This document shows, piece after piece, positions 12,862 to 18,520 of a stretch of DNA of 38,311 bases (positions are counted from its first letter, which is position 1; every line of letters begins with the position of its first letter). The DNA is taken from positions 1 through 38,311 of the IMG/VR virus record IMGVR_UViG_2534681700_000007, one strand, 5' to 3'. The notes under the pieces are model-generated. The model was given only the letters and a program-made list of their open reading frames with translations. It was not told where the DNA came from and ran no database searches. The translations under genes were made by a program, and so were the position numbers. This DNA is from a virus (lineage: Duplodnaviria; Heunggongvirae; Uroviricota; Caudoviricetes).

Positions 12862-12876
12862 GTTGGAGTCATTACC

Positions 12877-12884
12877 TGATTTTG
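12877..12884. repeat. IS1 target-site duplication, right copy (TGATTTTG)
   Basis: See left copy at 12101..12108. Confidence 0.8.
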
Positions 12885-15006
12885 TCATAATTAAACGAGA
12901 TGAGGCATTAGACGAGGAAATATATATTGGTGTTATTTGTAAAGTTGGAAAGATAATTCAGTCAAATAGTGAGGTTGAACGACAAATAGAAGAGTGTCAA
13001 TTATATCCACGCTTTATTTCTTCTGGCTCTAAGAACATACATTTGAATGAAATTTGGGTTATTACTAATTCATCGATCTCAAATAATGCTCAAGAAAAAA
13101 TTTACTTGAAATTCAAATCTACAAATATAAAATTTATAGAGGGTGAAAAAATATGTTCTTTAATCAGTAAATATTACCCAGAGTTTTGGGATTTCGAATC
13201 CATTAATTATGAACAATACTTAACAGATACATTGCAAACCATAAGTGATACACCTGAAAGCTCTTTTTTTGGTAGTGTTGGCATAAATAACCTTATTGAT
13301 AGATATGTAAGCAAGGAAGATCATAAAAAACGCAGACACAGGCCGTTAAAACTGTATAGTGTTGTGAGAGCCGAGAGATTTATTTTTTTAGAGGGAACCG
13401 TTGGCTCTGGGAAAAGTACTTTGCTGAAACAGTTAATTAGAAAAATAAAAGAAGAATATTCTTACGAAAAAGACTACATCCTTCCAGTATTTTGTCAATA
13501 CAAGGATGTTCTAGAAAAAAAACTTAATGTTGAAAATATAATACAAAGTGTGTTAAGTAAGTACAAAATACAACATGATGGGAATATTTTATTAATTGTT
13601 GATTCGGTGGATGAAGTAAAGGAATCACTTGAGGAAAGGCAAAACAATTTCAGGGACATTGTAGAGAAAGTATCCAGGAATGATAAAATTCGATTACTAG
13701 TTGCTTCAAGAATTATGGATTCTCTTCAGGACTATGAAGTTATCGATCAGATGTTTGCAAGATACTCGATAATACCACTTAGCACAGGTCAAATAATCGA
13801 CTTTGTAGATAAAATCTGCAATGACATTAAAATAACAAATAAACTTAAAAATGGTATAGAAAAAACACCACTATTTAAGTTCATTCCCAGGACTCCAGTG
13901 AGCGCTATTCTTCTGGCAAGAATACTCTCTGATGAGATTAAAGAATTACCATCTACAATGACAGAACTATACTCAAAATACAGTGAGATAGTATTGGGAC
14001 GATGGGATACATCTAAGGGATTATTATCGCAAACAGAATATGATGTAATAAGTAATATATTAGTAGAAATTGCGATATTTATGATGGATAACTCTCTAAA
14101 CTGCATATCAATTTCAGAAGTGCAGGACATGTTTTTAAATTATTTGGCCAAAAGAAACTTGAATGTTGATGAGGACAAACTTTTCAAAAGACTAATTTAT
14201 CGCAGTGAAGTAACAACAGTTAATGTTAGAAGTAATACGTTCTCATTTCTACACAGATCATTCATGGAGTATTTTTACGCTGAAGGACTTAGGAAGCGTG
14301 GCCTAATAGACATAAATGATAATATTTATGATATTTATTGGGCAAATAGTTATTTCTTCTATTTTGGTTTGTTAAGAGACAATGAATATCTTATTGATAA
14401 AATTAATGAACTTAAACCTAGTAACGATAAAACAAGATTTTTAAGGTTATTTTATAACGGTTCTTTTTATTTGGCTTCATATCTAACTCCGTATAAAAAA
14501 ATAACGAGGGGAGTCCTTTTATCATATATAGATGCAGGTAAATTATATGTTGATATTCTCAAGGGAAATACCGACATCCCGCTGAAGGAGTTTTCACCAG
14601 TAGCTCTTCTTTGTATTTTCACAAAGTGTTTAAGTAACAATTACGCATATGATTTTTTCAAATCTGCCTTGGAAGACTTGTCAGTTCAAATTGAACAATA
14701 TGAGGAAATTGGTGAACATATTGATTATGCACGTTTCTTCATAGCATCAACACTGAATGAGCTCGGGGATAAATCCGCATTTGATAGCTTAGTGGAAAAA
14801 AATAAATTAGGTGTTTTGATTAATTTAGGGATAACTCACGTTACAGACGACTCAGGGCTACTTAGCACTACGGTTGATAAGTACCTGAAAAAATTCAATA
14901 AAAAAGTACGAAGTAACCATGATATGTCTAATTATATATCTAAGTTATATGAGGAATCTACAGGTTCCTTACGTACAAACCTGCAAATTCAATAATAAAT
15001 AGATTG

Positions 15007-15041
15007 TCACATTGAAGGTAACGTATCGACCTTCAATGTGA
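15007..15041 (+). terminator. Strong stem-loop (13-bp stem TCACATTGAAGGT / ACCTTCAATGTGA, 9-nt loop) 12 nt after the NTPase stop; possible terminator
   Basis: Perfect inverted repeat read from the sequence; the downstream tract is only weakly T-rich, so terminator function is uncertain. Confidence 0.35.
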
Positions 15042-15363
15042 TGATTATCCTCTTGATAATATAGCTTAAGCTACTTTCGACTTTCTGAGACAAAGAGATT
15101 GCAGAATGTACCAATCATAGTGAAGCTATCGTAAATGTTCGCACGTCGCTCAAATCAGATAGTCATATTTGAGTGAACTGCTTACTCAAAATGCTGGTTG
15201 GGGCCTGACTTAATACATCTGAAGAAGTGTTGGTTATGTTTGGCTGTTGTGTTCCATTGCCAAAGAAAAAATAGATAAACTATACCCAATAGTTGTATTG
15301 AATCACTGACGAGACAGCCTCATATTTATCAGGACTGGTGTGCGTCCAATACAGGAGGTTGTC

Positions 15364-15453
15364 GTGCTGGTTCTCAAATGTGCGCTGGCTATTGCTGCTG
15401 TAATAGCAATTTATTGTCTTGCTGTTGTTCTTATGGATCGCCTTTCTGATTGA
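15364..15453 (+). CDS. Candidate small hydrophobic peptide, 29 aa (MLVLKCALAIAAVIAIYCLAVVLMDRLSD), GTG start
   Basis: AGGAGG Shine-Dalgarno 5 nt upstream of the GTG; a single predicted transmembrane helix with a charged C-terminus; not in the ORF track because of its size. Confidence 0.25.
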   Translation: MLVLKCALAIAAVIAIYCLAVVLMDRLSD

Positions 15454-15606
15454 TTTCATATTGGCGAAGTAAAGGGGGTTAAATAGTATGGCTGCGGGGG
15501 CTTGAGGCTATCTGCCTTGGGCATGAAAACCAAAGGCAGATAGAAAAAGTCCCAGTTGATATTACGCATCCGGCAAGAGGCTTAACATTAATCTGGGGCC
15601 CAATCT

Positions 15607-15819
15607 ATGCCTTACAAACGTAGGTTAGTCTCTTACGTGCTGAAAGGCAAGAAGAAGCGGGCTATGAAGCAGCAAAAGGCGATGTTAATCACCCTGATCG
15701 TCATCTGTTTAACCGTTATAGTGACGGTACTGGTAACGAGGAAAGACCTCTGCGAGGTACGAATCCGAACCGACCAGACGGAGGTCGCTGTCTTCACAGC
15801 TTACGAACTTGGGGAGTAA
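15607..15819 (+). CDS. mok: Mok (modulation of killing) reading frame, 70 aa, same frame as hok and N-terminally extended
   Basis: The 70-aa ORF contains the ...KRAMKQQKAM... junction typical of chromosomal mok/hok pairs. Confidence 0.65.
   Translation: MPYKRRLVSYVLKGKKKRAMKQQKAMLITLIVICLTVIVTVLVTRKDLCEVRIRTDQTEVAVFTAYELGE
15664..15819 (+). CDS. hok: Hok/Gef-family type I toxin, 51 aa (MKQQKAMLITLIVICLTVIVTVLVTRKDLCEVRIRTDQTEVAVFTAYELGE)
   Basis: Recognised Hok-family sequence, closest in my recollection to HokD/RelF and HokC/Gef; one transmembrane helix followed by the conserved RKDLCEV...EVAVF motif. Confidence 0.85.
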   Translation: MKQQKAMLITLIVICLTVIVTVLVTRKDLCEVRIRTDQTEVAVFTAYELGE

Positions 15820-15830
15820 GAGGACCAGCG

Positions 15831-15842
15831 GGGAGAAATCCC
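15831..15842. repeat. IS186 target-site duplication, left copy (GGGAGAAATCCC)
   Basis: The same 12-mer is repeated at 17179..17190 directly outside the IS186 ends; G-run...C-run target typical of IS186. Confidence 0.75.
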
Positions 15843-17178
15843 ATAAGCGCTAACTTAAGGGTTGAACCATCTGAAGAATGCGACGCCTCGGTGCCTCGTT
15901 AAGACGATGCCTCGCGTTCTTCAATTGCGTTTTGTAGGCTGTCAGGGATACTGTCCCACGAATGGCCACCTGTAAGCTCCAGATGACCATTTTTGTTATT
16001 CTCCACAACGAGTTAGTTCTTCTTTTCGGATCCGGCACTTCTGGGGGGGAAATCCAGCGATGGCTGGATTATGTCGTCAATTAAAAATGCGGCGAGTAGA
16101 TTAGCAAATATCCACGCTTTCGCGAGTTCAGGTTCCTTTGCACGCAAAGCATCCAGGTGCAGCAAACTTTTGAGCCGCTTAAAAGCCAGTTCAATTTGCC
16201 ATCGCAGACGGTAACAATCAGCCACTTGCTCTGCTGAATATTCATCTTCCGGTAATGATGTTAGCAATAGCACATGGCCCGCTGCTTCCAGCGTTTCCGC
16301 CTGAACTACTCGTCCTTTTCGACGATTCTCGCTGAGCAGTCGGGTTTTACTGATTAATGCTTTTTCGGGAGGAAGTGATACGGCAATGAGACGTGCCGGA
16401 AAGGGAGCTCCGGCTTTTTTATTACCTGAATTGCCTATCATTACAGTGGTTTCACCGTTCTTACCGCAATCCAGCCCGCGCAGAAAACCCATCATGTCAA
16501 AGCGCATTCCTTCTGCAGTTAACCAGCGCAATCCTCGCCAGTGAACCCGGACGATATAATCAGCTTCTCCAAAAGCAAGTGAGCGGATACATTCGGGACG
16601 CGAACCGAATCCCCGGTCTGCAATGCGTATCTCGTCTGCCGTTTGCGCAAATCGGTCCAGCCGTTCAGCGTCTCTGCTGTCGGTTAGCTCAAAATCAGTG
16701 AACTGACAGGTATGAGGATCATATCCCATATGTAGTCGCCATTCAGCGCTGCCGCCCCGGGCGCACTGATTGCTGTTCCATCGACAAGACGCAATCTCTT
16801 TCCGCTTGTACAACCCGTAACTGCGGCGCGTACAGCAAGTGTTTGTGCGGCAAGTATGCCAAACCAGTCGGCGGCATTCCGCAGCCGCTTCAGGAGAGCC
16901 ACGTCAGATAATGTTGCAACGTCATGGAGCTGAGCCCATGCAGTGACTTCACGTAATGACATCCCCCCGGGGCCGTAAGCCAGCCCCAGACGTAGCAGAG
17001 TTGCAGCATCACGAATTTCGCGGCGGCGGGTTAGAGCCCCGGCATTACGTGCCGAAGTATCCAGTTCTTCGGGCTTACCAATATGGGCCAGAATTGCTGA
17101 CCAGTTATCGTGAGAGTAATTCATCGGCACGTTAAATCATATCAGGCGTAATACCACAACCCTTAAGTTAGCGCTTAT
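15843..17178 (-). mobile_element. IS186 (IS4 family), about 1336 bp
   Basis: Terminal inverted repeats CATAAGCGCTAACTTAAGGGTTG (15843...) and CAACCCTTAAGTTAGCGCTTATG (...17178); internal transposase; 12-bp direct repeat flanks. Confidence 0.85.
16013..17124 (-). pseudogene. insL: IS186 transposase (InsL-like) split by a frameshift into two overlapping ORFs (16684..17130 and 16013..16813)
   Basis: The two minus-strand ORFs together span 1112 nt from the MNYSHDNWSAILAHIGK start; one extra nucleotide would give a single 370-aa ORF. Frames switch in the GCGCCCGGGGCGGC run (about 16755..16770). C-terminal ORF carries DRGF and YRLRWQIELAFKRLK (DDE/YREK) motifs. Confidence 0.7.
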
Positions 17179-17190
17179 GGGAGAAATCCC
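17179..17190. repeat. IS186 target-site duplication, right copy (GGGAGAAATCCC)
   Basis: See left copy at 15831..15842. Confidence 0.75.
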
Positions 17191-17630
17191 CGCAACCTCT
17201 GATGTATTATGCATCCTCAACGCAGCCACAGTTAACCTGATTGGCGGGTTTACTTCATCTGTAAATATTTTTATAAAAATAATGCCCACGCACAGCATAA
17301 AACAAAAAGTATTACAGATAAAAAAGGAACGTAATGTACAGATTTGTTGTTTTCCATATTTACTCACCTTAATATGATTAACCCTGATAGGGCTATTATT
17401 TCAGCGGTTTTCAAATGAGATATTATGGTGATCTGACAAATTTGCATAACATTAAAATTTAATTTGTTTAACCGCTTTTAATAATAAGCGTTGTTTGTAT
17501 CCCAGCAATCTGTTGTTTGGTTTTTATTCCATTAAGGTGGGGGCTTTACACTGGAACCAGTTTATTTATACTTTATACGTCAGCCTGAACAACTGGCATC
17601 TGCTGCACTGCGCCATCGAGAGATTGAGAA

Positions 17631-18230
17631 ATGGCGCATATACAACTGGTCAAACAAACTTCTTCTGGTTTACTTCTCCCGGCGACGCCGGAGAGTTGCG
17701 ATTTTCTGCATCAAATCAAAATAGGTGAGTGGATACACGCAGACTTTAAGCGTGTGCGTAACTACGCATTCCACAAGCGTTTTTTCAAACTCCTGCAACT
17801 GGGATTCGATTACTGGACTCCGGTCGGTGGGGCGATCACGCCTCGCGAACGAGAACTGCTGTCTGGTTTCGTTGATTACCTGTGCGAATCAGTTGGTCGG
17901 GAACACACGCCAGCCCTGAGTGATGCCGCAGAGCAATACCTTAACACCGTTGCGACTCGTAGAACCCGGGATACGGCGTTGCTAAAGTCGTTTGAGGCTT
18001 TCCGCGAGTGGGTAACCATTCAGGCCGGATTTTACACCGAGCATATTTATCCGGACGGTAGCCGTGGGCGTCGGGCAAAATCCATCGCTTTTGCGAATAT
18101 GGACGAAGTCGAGTTTCAGCAGGTTTATAAATCTGTACTGAATGTGCTGTGGAACTGGATTCTGTTCCGTAAATTCTCCTCTCAGGAGGAAGTTGAAAAT
18201 GTGGCCGCACAACTACTGGAGTTTGCGTAA
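17631..18230 (+). CDS. Hypothetical nin-region phage protein, 199 aa
   Basis: ORF in the track; located upstream of the candidate Q gene as in lambdoid nin regions; family not firmly recognised. Confidence 0.55.
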   Translation: MAHIQLVKQTSSGLLLPATPESCDFLHQIKIGEWIHADFKRVRNYAFHKRFFKLLQLGFDYWTPVGGAITPRERELLSGFVDYLCESVGREHTPALSDAAEQYLNTVATRRTRDTALLKSFEAFREWVTIQAGFYTEHIYPDGSRGRRAKSIAFANMDEVEFQQVYKSVLNVLWNWILFRKFSSQEEVENVAAQLLEFA

Positions 18231-18520
18231 TGGTGAATTTACGTAAAGCGGCTAAAGGCCAGATGTGCCAGATCAGAATCCCTGGCTACTGCAATCACAA
18301 TCCCGAAACCTCTGTGCTGGCGCATTACAGGCTGGCGGGGACGTGCGGAACAGCGACAAAACCACACGATATGCAGGCGGCGATAGCCTGTAGCTCATGC
18401 CACGATCTAATCGACGGGCGGGTAAAAACCAGCGATTACACCAAAGAAGAATTGCGCCTGATGCATGCTGAAGGGGTTTTTCGCACACAAGAAATCTGGA
18501 GAAAGAAAGGTCATTTATGA
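18230..18520 (+). CDS. DUF1364/YbcO-like Cys-rich protein (putative nuclease), 96 aa
   Basis: Translation MVNLRKAAKGQMCQIRIPGYCNHNPETSVLAHYR...CSSCHDLIDGR resembles YbcO-family prophage proteins; start overlaps the upstream stop (ATGA-type junction). Confidence 0.6.
   Translation: MVNLRKAAKGQMCQIRIPGYCNHNPETSVLAHYRLAGTCGTATKPHDMQAAIACSSCHDLIDGRVKTSDYTKEELRLMHAEGVFRTQEIWRKKGHL

Follow-up and report, generated by a model that had tools for sequence, protein, structure and literature searches.

Type I toxin-antitoxin loci of the Hok family are best introduced through hok/sok (parB) of plasmid R1, an uninterrupted and experimentally proven system. It combines a Hok-family toxin, an overlapping mok frame and the antisense RNA Sok with a switch formed by tac, ucb and the Shine-Dalgarno (SD) sequence, a 3′ fold-back element (fbi) and a protective 3′ stem-loop; this stem-loop closes off the processed, translatable message at its 3′ end and makes that end resistant to exonucleases. 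The tac/fbi switch of R1 hok has been described, and loss-of-function substitutions are known in its last 3′ stem-loop (PMC9841398). All of these elements have predicted counterparts in the window, by which we mean the whole 38,311-nt stretch of viral DNA analysed, although here the 3′ elements are split off by an insertion sequence.

In the chromosome of Escherichia coli K-12, insertion elements near the reading frames have inactivated hok loci (PMC7337300, PMC7232551), and two of these loci anticipate the present case, a precedent to which the preliminary description of this DNA had pointed and which holds down to the homologous nucleotide. In hokC (gef)/mokC/sokC, IS186A lies at that nucleotide of the post-stop hairpin (GCGGGGAGTGATCCCCGC), with the same 23-bp distance to the stop codon, the same 12-bp duplication (GGGAGnnATCCC), a transposase gene antisense to hok, and both fbi and terminator beyond the IS. 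Unlike ours, this locus lies outside a prophage, at dnaJ-nhaA in the chromosome; it is also another hok paralogue, with a stronger tac/fbi helix (-18.3 kcal/mol) and an intact IS186 transposase. In hokE/sokE, IS186B occupies the same hairpin target (GCGGGGAGTAATCCCCGC) 22 bp past the stop, again with a 12-bp duplication, but the IS is reversed, the Hok sequence has diverged and the locus lies in the chromosome at ybdK-entD. One study takes IS186 beside gef/hokC to disrupt fbi as well as processing, and reports that a gef mRNA carrying IS186 in the orientation of the window, and ending inside it, is transcribed and remains under sof antisense control (PMC3562002). For the IS186 insertions of hokC and hokE, the conclusion drawn has been the same loss or strong deregulation of delayed-activation killing that is considered below.

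A third K-12 gene, hokD (relF) of the Qin prophage, encodes the closest Hok protein among those compared and, as in the window, belongs to a lambdoid prophage and precedes the next gene of the early region. The relBE rearrangement has deprived it of its leader, mok and sok, and it carries no IS, whereas the window keeps the full 5′ regulatory region; the gene following Qin hokD (ydfU) is a DUF968 gene by related-genome annotation, where the window has DUF1367. As for IS186 itself, its published target preference is GGGG(N6/N7)CCCC (PMC6925257). In a case where the target is a promoter, insertion is likewise site-specific, in either orientation and at GGGG-N6/7-CCCC, but it abolishes transcription, whereas the target in the window is an mRNA 3′ hairpin. 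The locus reported here is a new instance of the event already known for two K-12 hok genes.

A hok/mok/sok module in a Rac-family prophage

The HokD-type module lies between replication genes and nin-region genes of an element that the closest genomes and the annotation identify as a Rac-family lambdoid prophage of E. coli. The prophage setting named in the preliminary description is borne out by the synteny in the closest genomes (intR-recET-racC-kilR-sieB-racR-ydaSTUV and, further on, nin-region genes and lysis genes). Downstream of the hok locus follow DUF1367/NinB-like and YbcO; no homologue of Rem (K-12 Qin) was found between hok and DUF1367, and PADLOC assigned neither Hok nor the upstream NACHT protein to a defence system.

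The nesting of hok within a mok frame was confirmed as first described. The toxin matches Pfam PF01848 (HOK_GEF; E=5e-21, 74.4 bits against a cut-off of 22) and PHROG 251 (E=4e-30), and the leader matches Rfam RF01794 (92.4 bits, gathering score 59). The toxin differs from K-12 HokD at 5 of 51 positions, and the mok start lies 57 nt upstream of the hok start, an offset identical to that of K-12 mokC/hokC. No decay of the hok frame was found among the IS-bearing copies examined, and 42 of 45 Hok homologues assayed elsewhere were toxic (bioRxiv 10.1101/2025.08.07.668861). Related prophage copies carry the RefSeq name hokD.

The promoter hexamers of hok and Sok were identified by eye and by homology, and neither promoter reached the threshold of a promoter scan of the locus, in which the putative hok promoter scored 8/12. 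Its -10 box aligns with TAGAAT of more than 60 related hok loci, and the transcript is expected to start near 15496/15497. An alternative 5′ end at 15490, from which GGCUGCG would pair perfectly with CGCAGCC for a stronger closure, is unlikely because the -10 box itself sits at 15484-15489. On the minus strand, candidate boxes (-10 at 15622-15627, -35 at 15645-15650) precede a region that aligns with the annotated sokC and sokE of K-12 and that is predicted to form a terminator-type hairpin with a U-run behind it (-21.7 kcal/mol, with a z of only -1.8); from these features we infer a Sok antisense gene. The anti-SD carries a C-to-U change beside the changed mok SD, which looks like partial compensation. 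IS186 leaves untouched the promoter, tac, the anti-SD, the SD and start codon of mok, the Sok target and the putative Sok gene (Table 1).

Table 1. Coordinates of the hok/mok/sok module and of the IS186 copy in the window
Feature	Position	Strand	Remarks
Putative hok promoter	15461..15489	+	-35 TTGGCG (15461-15466), 17-nt spacer, -10 TAGTAT (15484-15489)
hok mRNA leader	15496..15669	+	full-length Rfam RF01794 match
tac element	15497..15508	+	GGGGCUUGAGGC; hok mRNA 5′ end, start of RF01794 match
Sok-like antisense RNA	15541..15615	-	about 75 nt; covers mok SD and start codon
ucb/anti-SD box	15547..15554	+	from fold pairing
mok Shine-Dalgarno	15595..15598	+	GGGG here; GAGG in common alleles
mok reading frame	15607..15819	+	70 codons, hok in same frame
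hok toxin gene	15664..15819	+	51 aa plus stop, HokD-like
Left part of split 3′ stem-loop	15828..15842	+	GCGGGG-AGAAAT-CCC; includes left duplication copy
Direct repeat	15831..15842 and 17179..17190		GGGAGAAATCCC; brackets IS186
IS186/IS421 (IS4 family)	15843..17178	-	1336 bp; near-identical to K-12 IS186
IS186 inverted repeats	15843-15864 and 17157-17178		perfect, 22 bp
Transposase gene	16013-17124	-	antisense to hok
Homopolymer tract	16751..16758		C4G3; canonical IS186 has C5G3
Right duplication copy and 3′ stem half	17179..17194	+	CCCCGC
fbi element	17215..17227	+	CCUCAACGCAGCC; tac partner in reconstructed mRNA
Degenerate terminator-like hairpin	17236..17253	+	CCTGATTGGCGGGTTTAC; from alignment of 67 alleles

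IS186 within the hok 3′ stem-loop

The insertion lies 23 bp past the hok stop codon, and the element differs from K-12 IS186A/B at two points, one substitution and one 1-bp deletion, in agreement with its first identification. In related genomes PGAP names the element IS421. The deletion, in the C4G3 tract, shifts the transposase reading frame and leaves two ORFs (148 and 266 aa) in place of an intact 370-aa DDE transposase; the 266-aa fragment matches DDE_Tnp_1 (E=3e-24). The same tract is present in an IMG/VR contig (L006) that is 100% identical to the window across 5153 bp, and the frameshift may be a homopolymer sequencing error. An assembly artefact was considered for the insertion as a whole and was ruled out, since the same junctions recur in three independent IMG/VR contigs and in 43 complete genomes of E. 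coli.

The flanking direct repeat, initially given as 12 bp, was found as described, and uninterrupted copies contain a single GGGGAGAAATCCCC instead. One of its nucleotides is assignable to the IS (termini CATAAGCGC...), and in a related insertion (L087) the extra C is part of the IS, because of which the true target duplication is put at 11-12 bp. The site fits the target GGGG-N6-CCCC, the G-run/C-run preference that the preliminary description had named. It also coincides with a G+C-rich stem-loop 9-26 nt past the hok stop codon, whose stem shows G-C/A-U/G-U covariation among 67 alleles. The original placement of the IS near the stop codon stands, and can be made more exact: IS186 lies inside the mRNA-stabilising 3′ stem-loop. 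The predicted energy of this structure falls from -18.3 kcal/mol when intact (z -5.2) to -9.2 (z -0.6) with IS186, a stable stem-loop being present in the progenitor allele and split by IS186 in the window.

The uninterrupted progenitor, with the same leader and one copy of the target, was found in E. coli NCTC9699 (L002) and in a second copy of the locus (L009), which supplies the comparison proposed at the outset. This IS-free form deviates from the common alleles by a weak tac/fbi pairing, the GGGG version of the mok SD and a degenerate terminator.

The predicted fold-back switch with and without IS186

Thermodynamic folding of the reconstructed full-length uninterrupted mRNA predicts a closed form, in which tac (15500-15507) pairs with fbi and ucb with the mok SD (p about 0.9), and in the truncated mRNA an open one, in which tac pairs with ucb (p 0.83-0.93) and the SD is freed. 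The 3′ fold-back to the 5′ end described for hok systems is found in the reconstructed and in the real uninterrupted allele. The fbi element corresponds by homology to CCUCAACGCACCC in hokC and in the common alleles, and the terminator-like hairpin is the counterpart of CCCGCTTCGGCGGGTTTTT in the latter. Both elements now lie past IS186, 1348 bp further from the hok frame, and the possibility raised earlier that all regulatory elements lie upstream of 15843 does not apply. In energy, the tac/fbi duplex reaches -12.8 kcal/mol in the present allele, with two mismatches, against -21.5 in the common one; among 67 alleles no compensatory tac/fbi changes were found, an uninformative result given a nearly invariant helix.

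What the insertion does to toxin regulation we infer from these structures. We consider it probable, on balance, that a hit of IS186 on the 3′ stem-loop of this HokD-type module caused delayed toxin activation to be lost or strongly deregulated. IS186 has transposed into a preferred GGGG-N6-CCCC target that is at the same time the post-stop stem-loop of hok, splitting and weakening it and moving fbi and the terminator 1348 bp downstream. Transcripts of hok would then run into IS186, antisense to the transposase gene, and the stable, translationally inert full-length mRNA, slowly processed to its active form, would no longer be built. Delayed-activation killing, whether post-segregational or stress-triggered, would be lost or strongly deregulated, with Sok still being made. 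Within this scheme, the pool of inert full-length mRNA would most likely be lost, as would delayed activation of the toxin.

The outcome would depend on where in the IS the transcript ends. The preliminary description proposed folds with and without IS186 to look for loss of 5′/3′ pairing; the tac/fbi pairing without the IS was recovered, but plain loss with it was not, as IS sequence can substitute. A segment of IS186 at 15885-15897, 66-78 nt past the hok stop, forms a duplex with tac of -19.6 kcal/mol, better than the -12.8 of the native fbi; of 300 shuffles, just 2 did as well. When the folded transcript stops at 15900 or 16020, tac is paired with the IS (p 0.8-0.98) and the SD remains paired, and a second partner at 15969-15980 also keeps the SD sequestered in predicted read-through transcripts. 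The insertion could on this basis be neutral for regulation or rewire the switch, with a surrogate tac partner and IS-internal terminators yielding a closed, untranslatable mRNA under Sok control. The pairing of the hokC consensus tac with the same IS site (-16.8 kcal/mol) and the sof regulation of the gef mRNA that ends inside IS186 agree with such an outcome. We nevertheless regard it as unlikely. The closed state is tied to the 3′ end chosen: transcripts cut at 15842 or 16424 fold into the open form, with tac on ucb (p 0.96-1.0) and a raised probability of an unpaired SD, and a fold ending at 16130 is split about evenly; whether the chimeric mRNA is closed or open would accordingly follow from the position of the transcript end. 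A G-rich 12-mer is, besides, easily partnered in G+C-rich DNA (null mean -13.6, sd 2), and reverse insertions, equally common (50 genomes), lack the 15885-15897 site, their best tac partner elsewhere reaching -16.7. The tac variant is older than the IS and shows no sign of co-adaptation: compensatory evolution of tac (GGGUGC to GGGGGC) towards a pseudo-fbi in IS186 was rejected, as the IS-free NCTC9699 allele has an identical tac. Finally, the protective 3′ stem-loop is lost regardless.

The same open folds could be read in the opposite sense, as a de-repression of the toxin. An mRNA deprived of fbi would be born open, translatable and accessible to Sok, leaving a constitutively primed toxin that is checked by Sok only and is more sensitive to Sok loss, as suggested by tac lying on ucb with a freer SD in transcripts that end at 15842 or at the strong terminator-like site inside IS186 (16395-16424). 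This we hold to be very improbable, given that an mRNA without its 3′ stem-loop should be open to attack by 3′-5′ exonucleases and that such mutations are loss-of-function in R1, that shorter read-through transcripts are predicted to be closed, and that about 93 complete genomes carry this frequent insertion and seem to tolerate it well.

The locus may not have worked before the insertion, since intact, IS-free chromosomal hok loci also failed at post-segregational killing in earlier work, as summarised in a preprint (bioRxiv 10.1101/2025.08.07.668861). The allele might already have been non-functional or differently regulated, and the insertion a neutral hit on a decaying locus: the progenitor has two mismatches in its tac/fbi helix and a weak terminator hairpin, and its GGGG mok SD is fully paired with the anti-SD, analogous to the loss-of-function substitution A106G of R1 (PMC9841398). 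Against such prior decay, the Hok frame, mok, leader structure and putative Sok gene show both conservation and integrity, partial compensation is suggested by the C-to-U change of the anti-SD, the uninterrupted mRNA still folds into a closed/open switch, and nearly all assayed Hok homologues are toxic, as cited above. We give it a small probability, and retain the disruption of a switch by IS186 as the preferred account.

Recurrence of the insertion and its significance

The event is recurrent. Among complete E. coli genomes with the present 3′-UTR allele, 43 carry IS186 in the same orientation as the window and 50 in reverse, and 117 are empty, so that the insertion is present in about 44% of them. 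Of 22 complete IS186 copies in IMG/VR contigs, 14 lie right next to a hok stop codon. Other hok alleles and one plasmid also carry IS186 insertions. The idea that only G4-N6-C4 alleles are hit was weakened by the L087 insertion, which lies in a GGGGG-AGAAT-CCC allele, a type in which no IS was found among about 65 loci of the first IMG/VR sample. A bolder proposal would take the conserved hok 3′ stem-loop as the main natural site at which IS186 lands on prophages and other mobile elements of E. coli. Insertion would repeatedly, and perhaps under selection, disarm or rewire the toxin, and in the present case the surrogate at 15885-15897 would keep the mRNA closed instead of regulation being simply destroyed; taken as a whole, we think the proposal unlikely.

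On its own, one more insertion sequence that disables or rewires a type I toxin carries little weight. What is useful beyond the single case is quantitative: the IS186 target consensus falls on the hok 3′ stem-loop, and most complete IS186 copies in predicted prophage contigs sit behind a hok gene. Before a copy is called functional, whether in annotating hok genes or in testing what prophage hok loci do, for example for phage defence or for the upkeep of the prophage, the locus should be inspected for IS186.

The hok/mok locus and its IS186 copy

The identification of the toxin locus in the preliminary description was borne out: the Hok product matches Pfam HOK_GEF (E=5e-21) and PHROG 251 ('MokW-like host killing', E=4e-30), the leader corresponds to Rfam RF01794, and the mok start lies 57 nt 5' of the hok start, as in mokC/hokC of E. 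coli K-12. Close to its 3' end, hok carries the sequence UACG (15802-15805; Tyr47 codon UAC plus G), a motif at which TadA is reported to edit A to I in the hokC, hokD and hokE mRNAs, changing Tyr to Cys. On the opposite strand, a putative Sok RNA, with a hairpin and a U-run at its end, overlaps the Shine-Dalgarno (SD) sequence and start codon of mok; the antitoxin side is, as far as sequence can tell, left intact by the insertion.

Features of the hok locus, the inserted element and their neighbours
Feature	Position	Strand	Description
NACHT/STAND NTPase	12863-14995	+	710 aa; Pfam NACHT and NCH1 C-terminal domain; directly upstream of hok
Hydrophobic ORF	15364-15453	+	29 aa, VLVLKCALAIAAVIAIYCLAVVLMDRLSD; GTG start, AGGAGG Shine-Dalgarno; just upstream of hok promoter
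hok leader	15496..15669	+	RF01794, full-length match, 92.4 bits (gathering score 59)
Sok-like RNA	~15615 to 15541	-	~75 nt; aligns with annotated sokC and sokE
mok	15607..15819	+	70-codon frame, in frame with hok
Sok -35 / -10	15645-15650 / 15622-15627	-	putative hexamers
hok	15664..15819	+	51-aa ORF, product MKQQKAMLITLIVICLTVIVTVLVTRKDLCEVRIRTDQTEVAVFTAYELGE
IS186 target stem-loop			GCGGGG-AGAAAT-CCCCGC, 9-26 nt past hok stop codon
Direct repeat	15831..15842 and 17179..17190		GGGAGAAATCCC; flanks IS186
IS186 (IS421 by PGAP)	15843..17178	-	DDE transposase; perfect 22-bp terminal inverted repeats
Terminator-like site	16395-16424	+	strong, intrinsic type; GCCGGAAAGGGAGCTCCGGC then T6; inside IS186
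fbi homologue	17215-17227		CCUCAACGCAGCC; right of IS186
Terminator-like hairpin	17236-17253		CCTGATTGGCGGGTTTAC; degenerate; right of IS186

IS186 begins 23 bp past the hok stop, as first described, and its inverted repeats, DDE transposase and near-identity to IS186A/B of K-12 confirm the assignment. Only two positions differ from these copies and that of strain D4: a T in place of A at 16619, and the run at 16751-16758, which is C4G3 instead of C5G3 and shifts the transposase frame, leaving ORFs of 148 and 266 aa. The shift could well reflect a homopolymer sequencing error, since the same run also deviates (C5G2) in L011, another IMG/VR copy. The flanking repeat had been taken as a 12-bp target duplication; it is present, with a true length of 11-12 bp and one nucleotide assignable to the IS end, because in L087, an IS186 insertion in the GGGGGAGAATCCC hok allele, an extra C cannot derive from the target.

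The split hairpin and the uninterrupted progenitor

The target agrees with the published preference of IS186 for 5'-GGGG(N6/N7)CCCC (PMC6925257), as proposed from its G- and C-runs. Folded alone, the intact hairpin reaches -18.3 kcal/mol (z -5.2, 0/200 shuffles equal), against -9.2 kcal/mol (z -0.6) for the best local structure predicted with IS186 inserted. One stem pair is G-C, A-U or G-U across 67 distinct related hok loci, a variation that argues for a genuine RNA helix. The final 3' stem-loop of processed R1 hok mRNA is the site of 19 loss-of-function substitutions, which have been read as opening the mRNA to 3'-5' exonucleases (PMC9841398).

Strain NCTC9699 (L002) and an IMG/VR locus (L009) carry the window's hok allele without the IS: each has one copy of GGGGAGAAATCCCC, and what follows it matches exactly the window sequence right of IS186. 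The Hok protein of L009 is identical and its tac (the mRNA 5' end) differs by one base, while L002 is identical from promoter to tac and in the mok SD region. Deleting IS186 together with one of the two repeats therefore recreates a real progenitor.

In common prophage alleles, tac starts with GGGUGCUUGAGGC, and the 3' fold-back-inhibition element (fbi), CCUCAACGCACCC, lies ~46 nt past the stop, followed by the canonical terminator CCCGCTTCGGCGGGTTTTT. K-12 hokC and hokE have matching tac/fbi pairs, with fbi beyond the IS186 copy. In the window, fbi and the terminator-like hairpin both lie right of IS186, so the regulatory elements are not all upstream of 15843 and the insertion separates them. 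The 3'-UTR type with the G4-N6-C4 hairpin also has the degenerate terminator, versus CCCGCTTCGGCGGGTTTTT in most prophage hokD-type loci (L013-L085).

In the predicted fold of the reconstructed full-length mRNA, tac (15500-15507) pairs with 17215-17223 (p 0.7-0.9) and the mok SD with the anti-SD box at 15551-15554 (p ~0.9). In an mRNA ending just past the intact hairpin, tac is predicted to pair with the anti-SD (p 0.83-0.93), leaving the SD more accessible; as modelled, this is the classical hok switch. The allele was nevertheless already unusual before IS186 arrived. Its tac/fbi duplex has two mismatches and reaches -12.8 kcal/mol, where hokC has -18.3 and the common allele -21.5, and its terminator is weak. 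The mok SD (15595-15598) is GGGG, not GAGG, which turns an A-C mismatch with the anti-SD into full pairing and is analogous to A106G, a loss-of-function substitution in R1 hok (PMC9841398); a U for C at the adjoining anti-SD base (15550-15554), giving a G-U wobble, may compensate in part. As presented in bioRxiv 10.1101/2025.08.07.668861, IS-free chromosomal hok loci gave no post-segregational killing in earlier work, which weakens any presumption that this locus was functional before the insertion.

Probable consequence for Hok regulation

Lacking fbi, the terminator and the 3' stem-loop, the locus would fail to build up the stable, inert full-length mRNA from which the active form is slowly trimmed, and hok transcripts would enter IS186 in antisense to its transposase gene. 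Most likely, therefore, Hok activation with a delay is lost, with Sok still made. The expectation that the insertion alters or abolishes toxin regulation is thus supported by the split stem-loop and the displaced fbi and terminator, with the refinement that read-through transcripts may still close by pairing tac with IS186 sequence. Two stretches complementary to tac, 15885-15897 (-19.6 kcal/mol, stronger than the native fbi at -12.8; 2/300 shuffles equal) and 15969-15980, sit approximately where fbi normally lies relative to the stop. The closed form predicted without the IS gives way to a predicted form that varies with the transcript end: closed for ends at 15900 or 16020, evenly split or nearly so at 16130, but open at 15842 or 16424. 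There is no sign of co-adaptation, since the tac variant is older than the IS. Loss of delayed activation remains the most likely outcome. The terminator-like site within IS186 lies on the hok strand, also that of the prophage early-right genes, and could end hok read-through and exert polarity on the downstream nin and Q genes.

Prophage setting and recurrence of the insertion

The prophage context was confirmed as a Rac-family lambdoid element (intR, recET, racC, kilR, sieB, racR, ydaSTUV), followed by a cargo slot, hok, DUF1367/NinB-like, YbcO, DUF1133, lysis and packaging genes. Among the complete E. coli genomes of the collection, none spans at least 80% of the window's first 25 kb in one place; an IMG/VR contig (IMGVR_UViG_2667527588_000006) is 100% identical over 13164..18316. 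Genomes sharing the NACHT cargo gene have an uninterrupted hok (94% identical), and in those with identical hok and IS186 the slot holds DUF262 and TPR genes, as it does in D4 and NCTC9699; the element is hence a mosaic. The NACHT/STAND NTPase has no system match in PADLOC and may be a phage-defence candidate. The 29-aa ORF has no match in Pfam or PHROG; its 8 nucleotide differences from D4 change no more than 2 amino acids, both conservatively, a pattern suggestive of a genuine small membrane protein.

The K-12 precedent also held. In hokC, IS186 lies at the homologous nucleotide with a homologous 12-bp duplication, the same 23-bp gap and the same orientation, whereas in hokE it occupies this place in opposite orientation with a 22-bp gap. 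K-12 hok loci are described as inactivated by insertion elements near the reading frames (Pedersen & Gerdes 1999, as relayed in PMC7337300 and PMC7232551). IS186 beside gef/hokC is thought to disturb fbi and mRNA processing, and the gef mRNA is said to stop within the IS ~200 bp past the stop, with antisense control kept (PMC3562002).

In counts that take in clonal relatives, 43 of 5,426 complete genomes have the window's 3'-UTR allele with IS186 in the window's orientation, 50 have it with IS186 reversed at this site, and 117 the uninterrupted allele (96-nt 3' UTR); of 98 IS186 ends on IMG/VR viral contigs, at least 55 adjoin a hok hairpin, in at least 8 hok alleles, and 14 of the 22 complete copies on predicted viral contigs (L090-L167) abut a hok stop codon. 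The remaining insertion flanks of that set also agree with GGGG-N6-CCC(C). The reverse junction occurs in L011 and in a second locus, L086, and a 94.7-kb plasmid (p3, NZ_JBXRYZ010000004.1) has reverse-orientation IS186 beside a different hok allele with hairpin GGGGAGAGATCCCC. Because orientations and hok alleles differ, several independent insertions are required. The window holds a further instance of a known event, the insertion of IS186 into the post-stop hairpin of hok, and the sole mildly new element is the dominance of hok hairpins as IS186 targets on prophage DNA.
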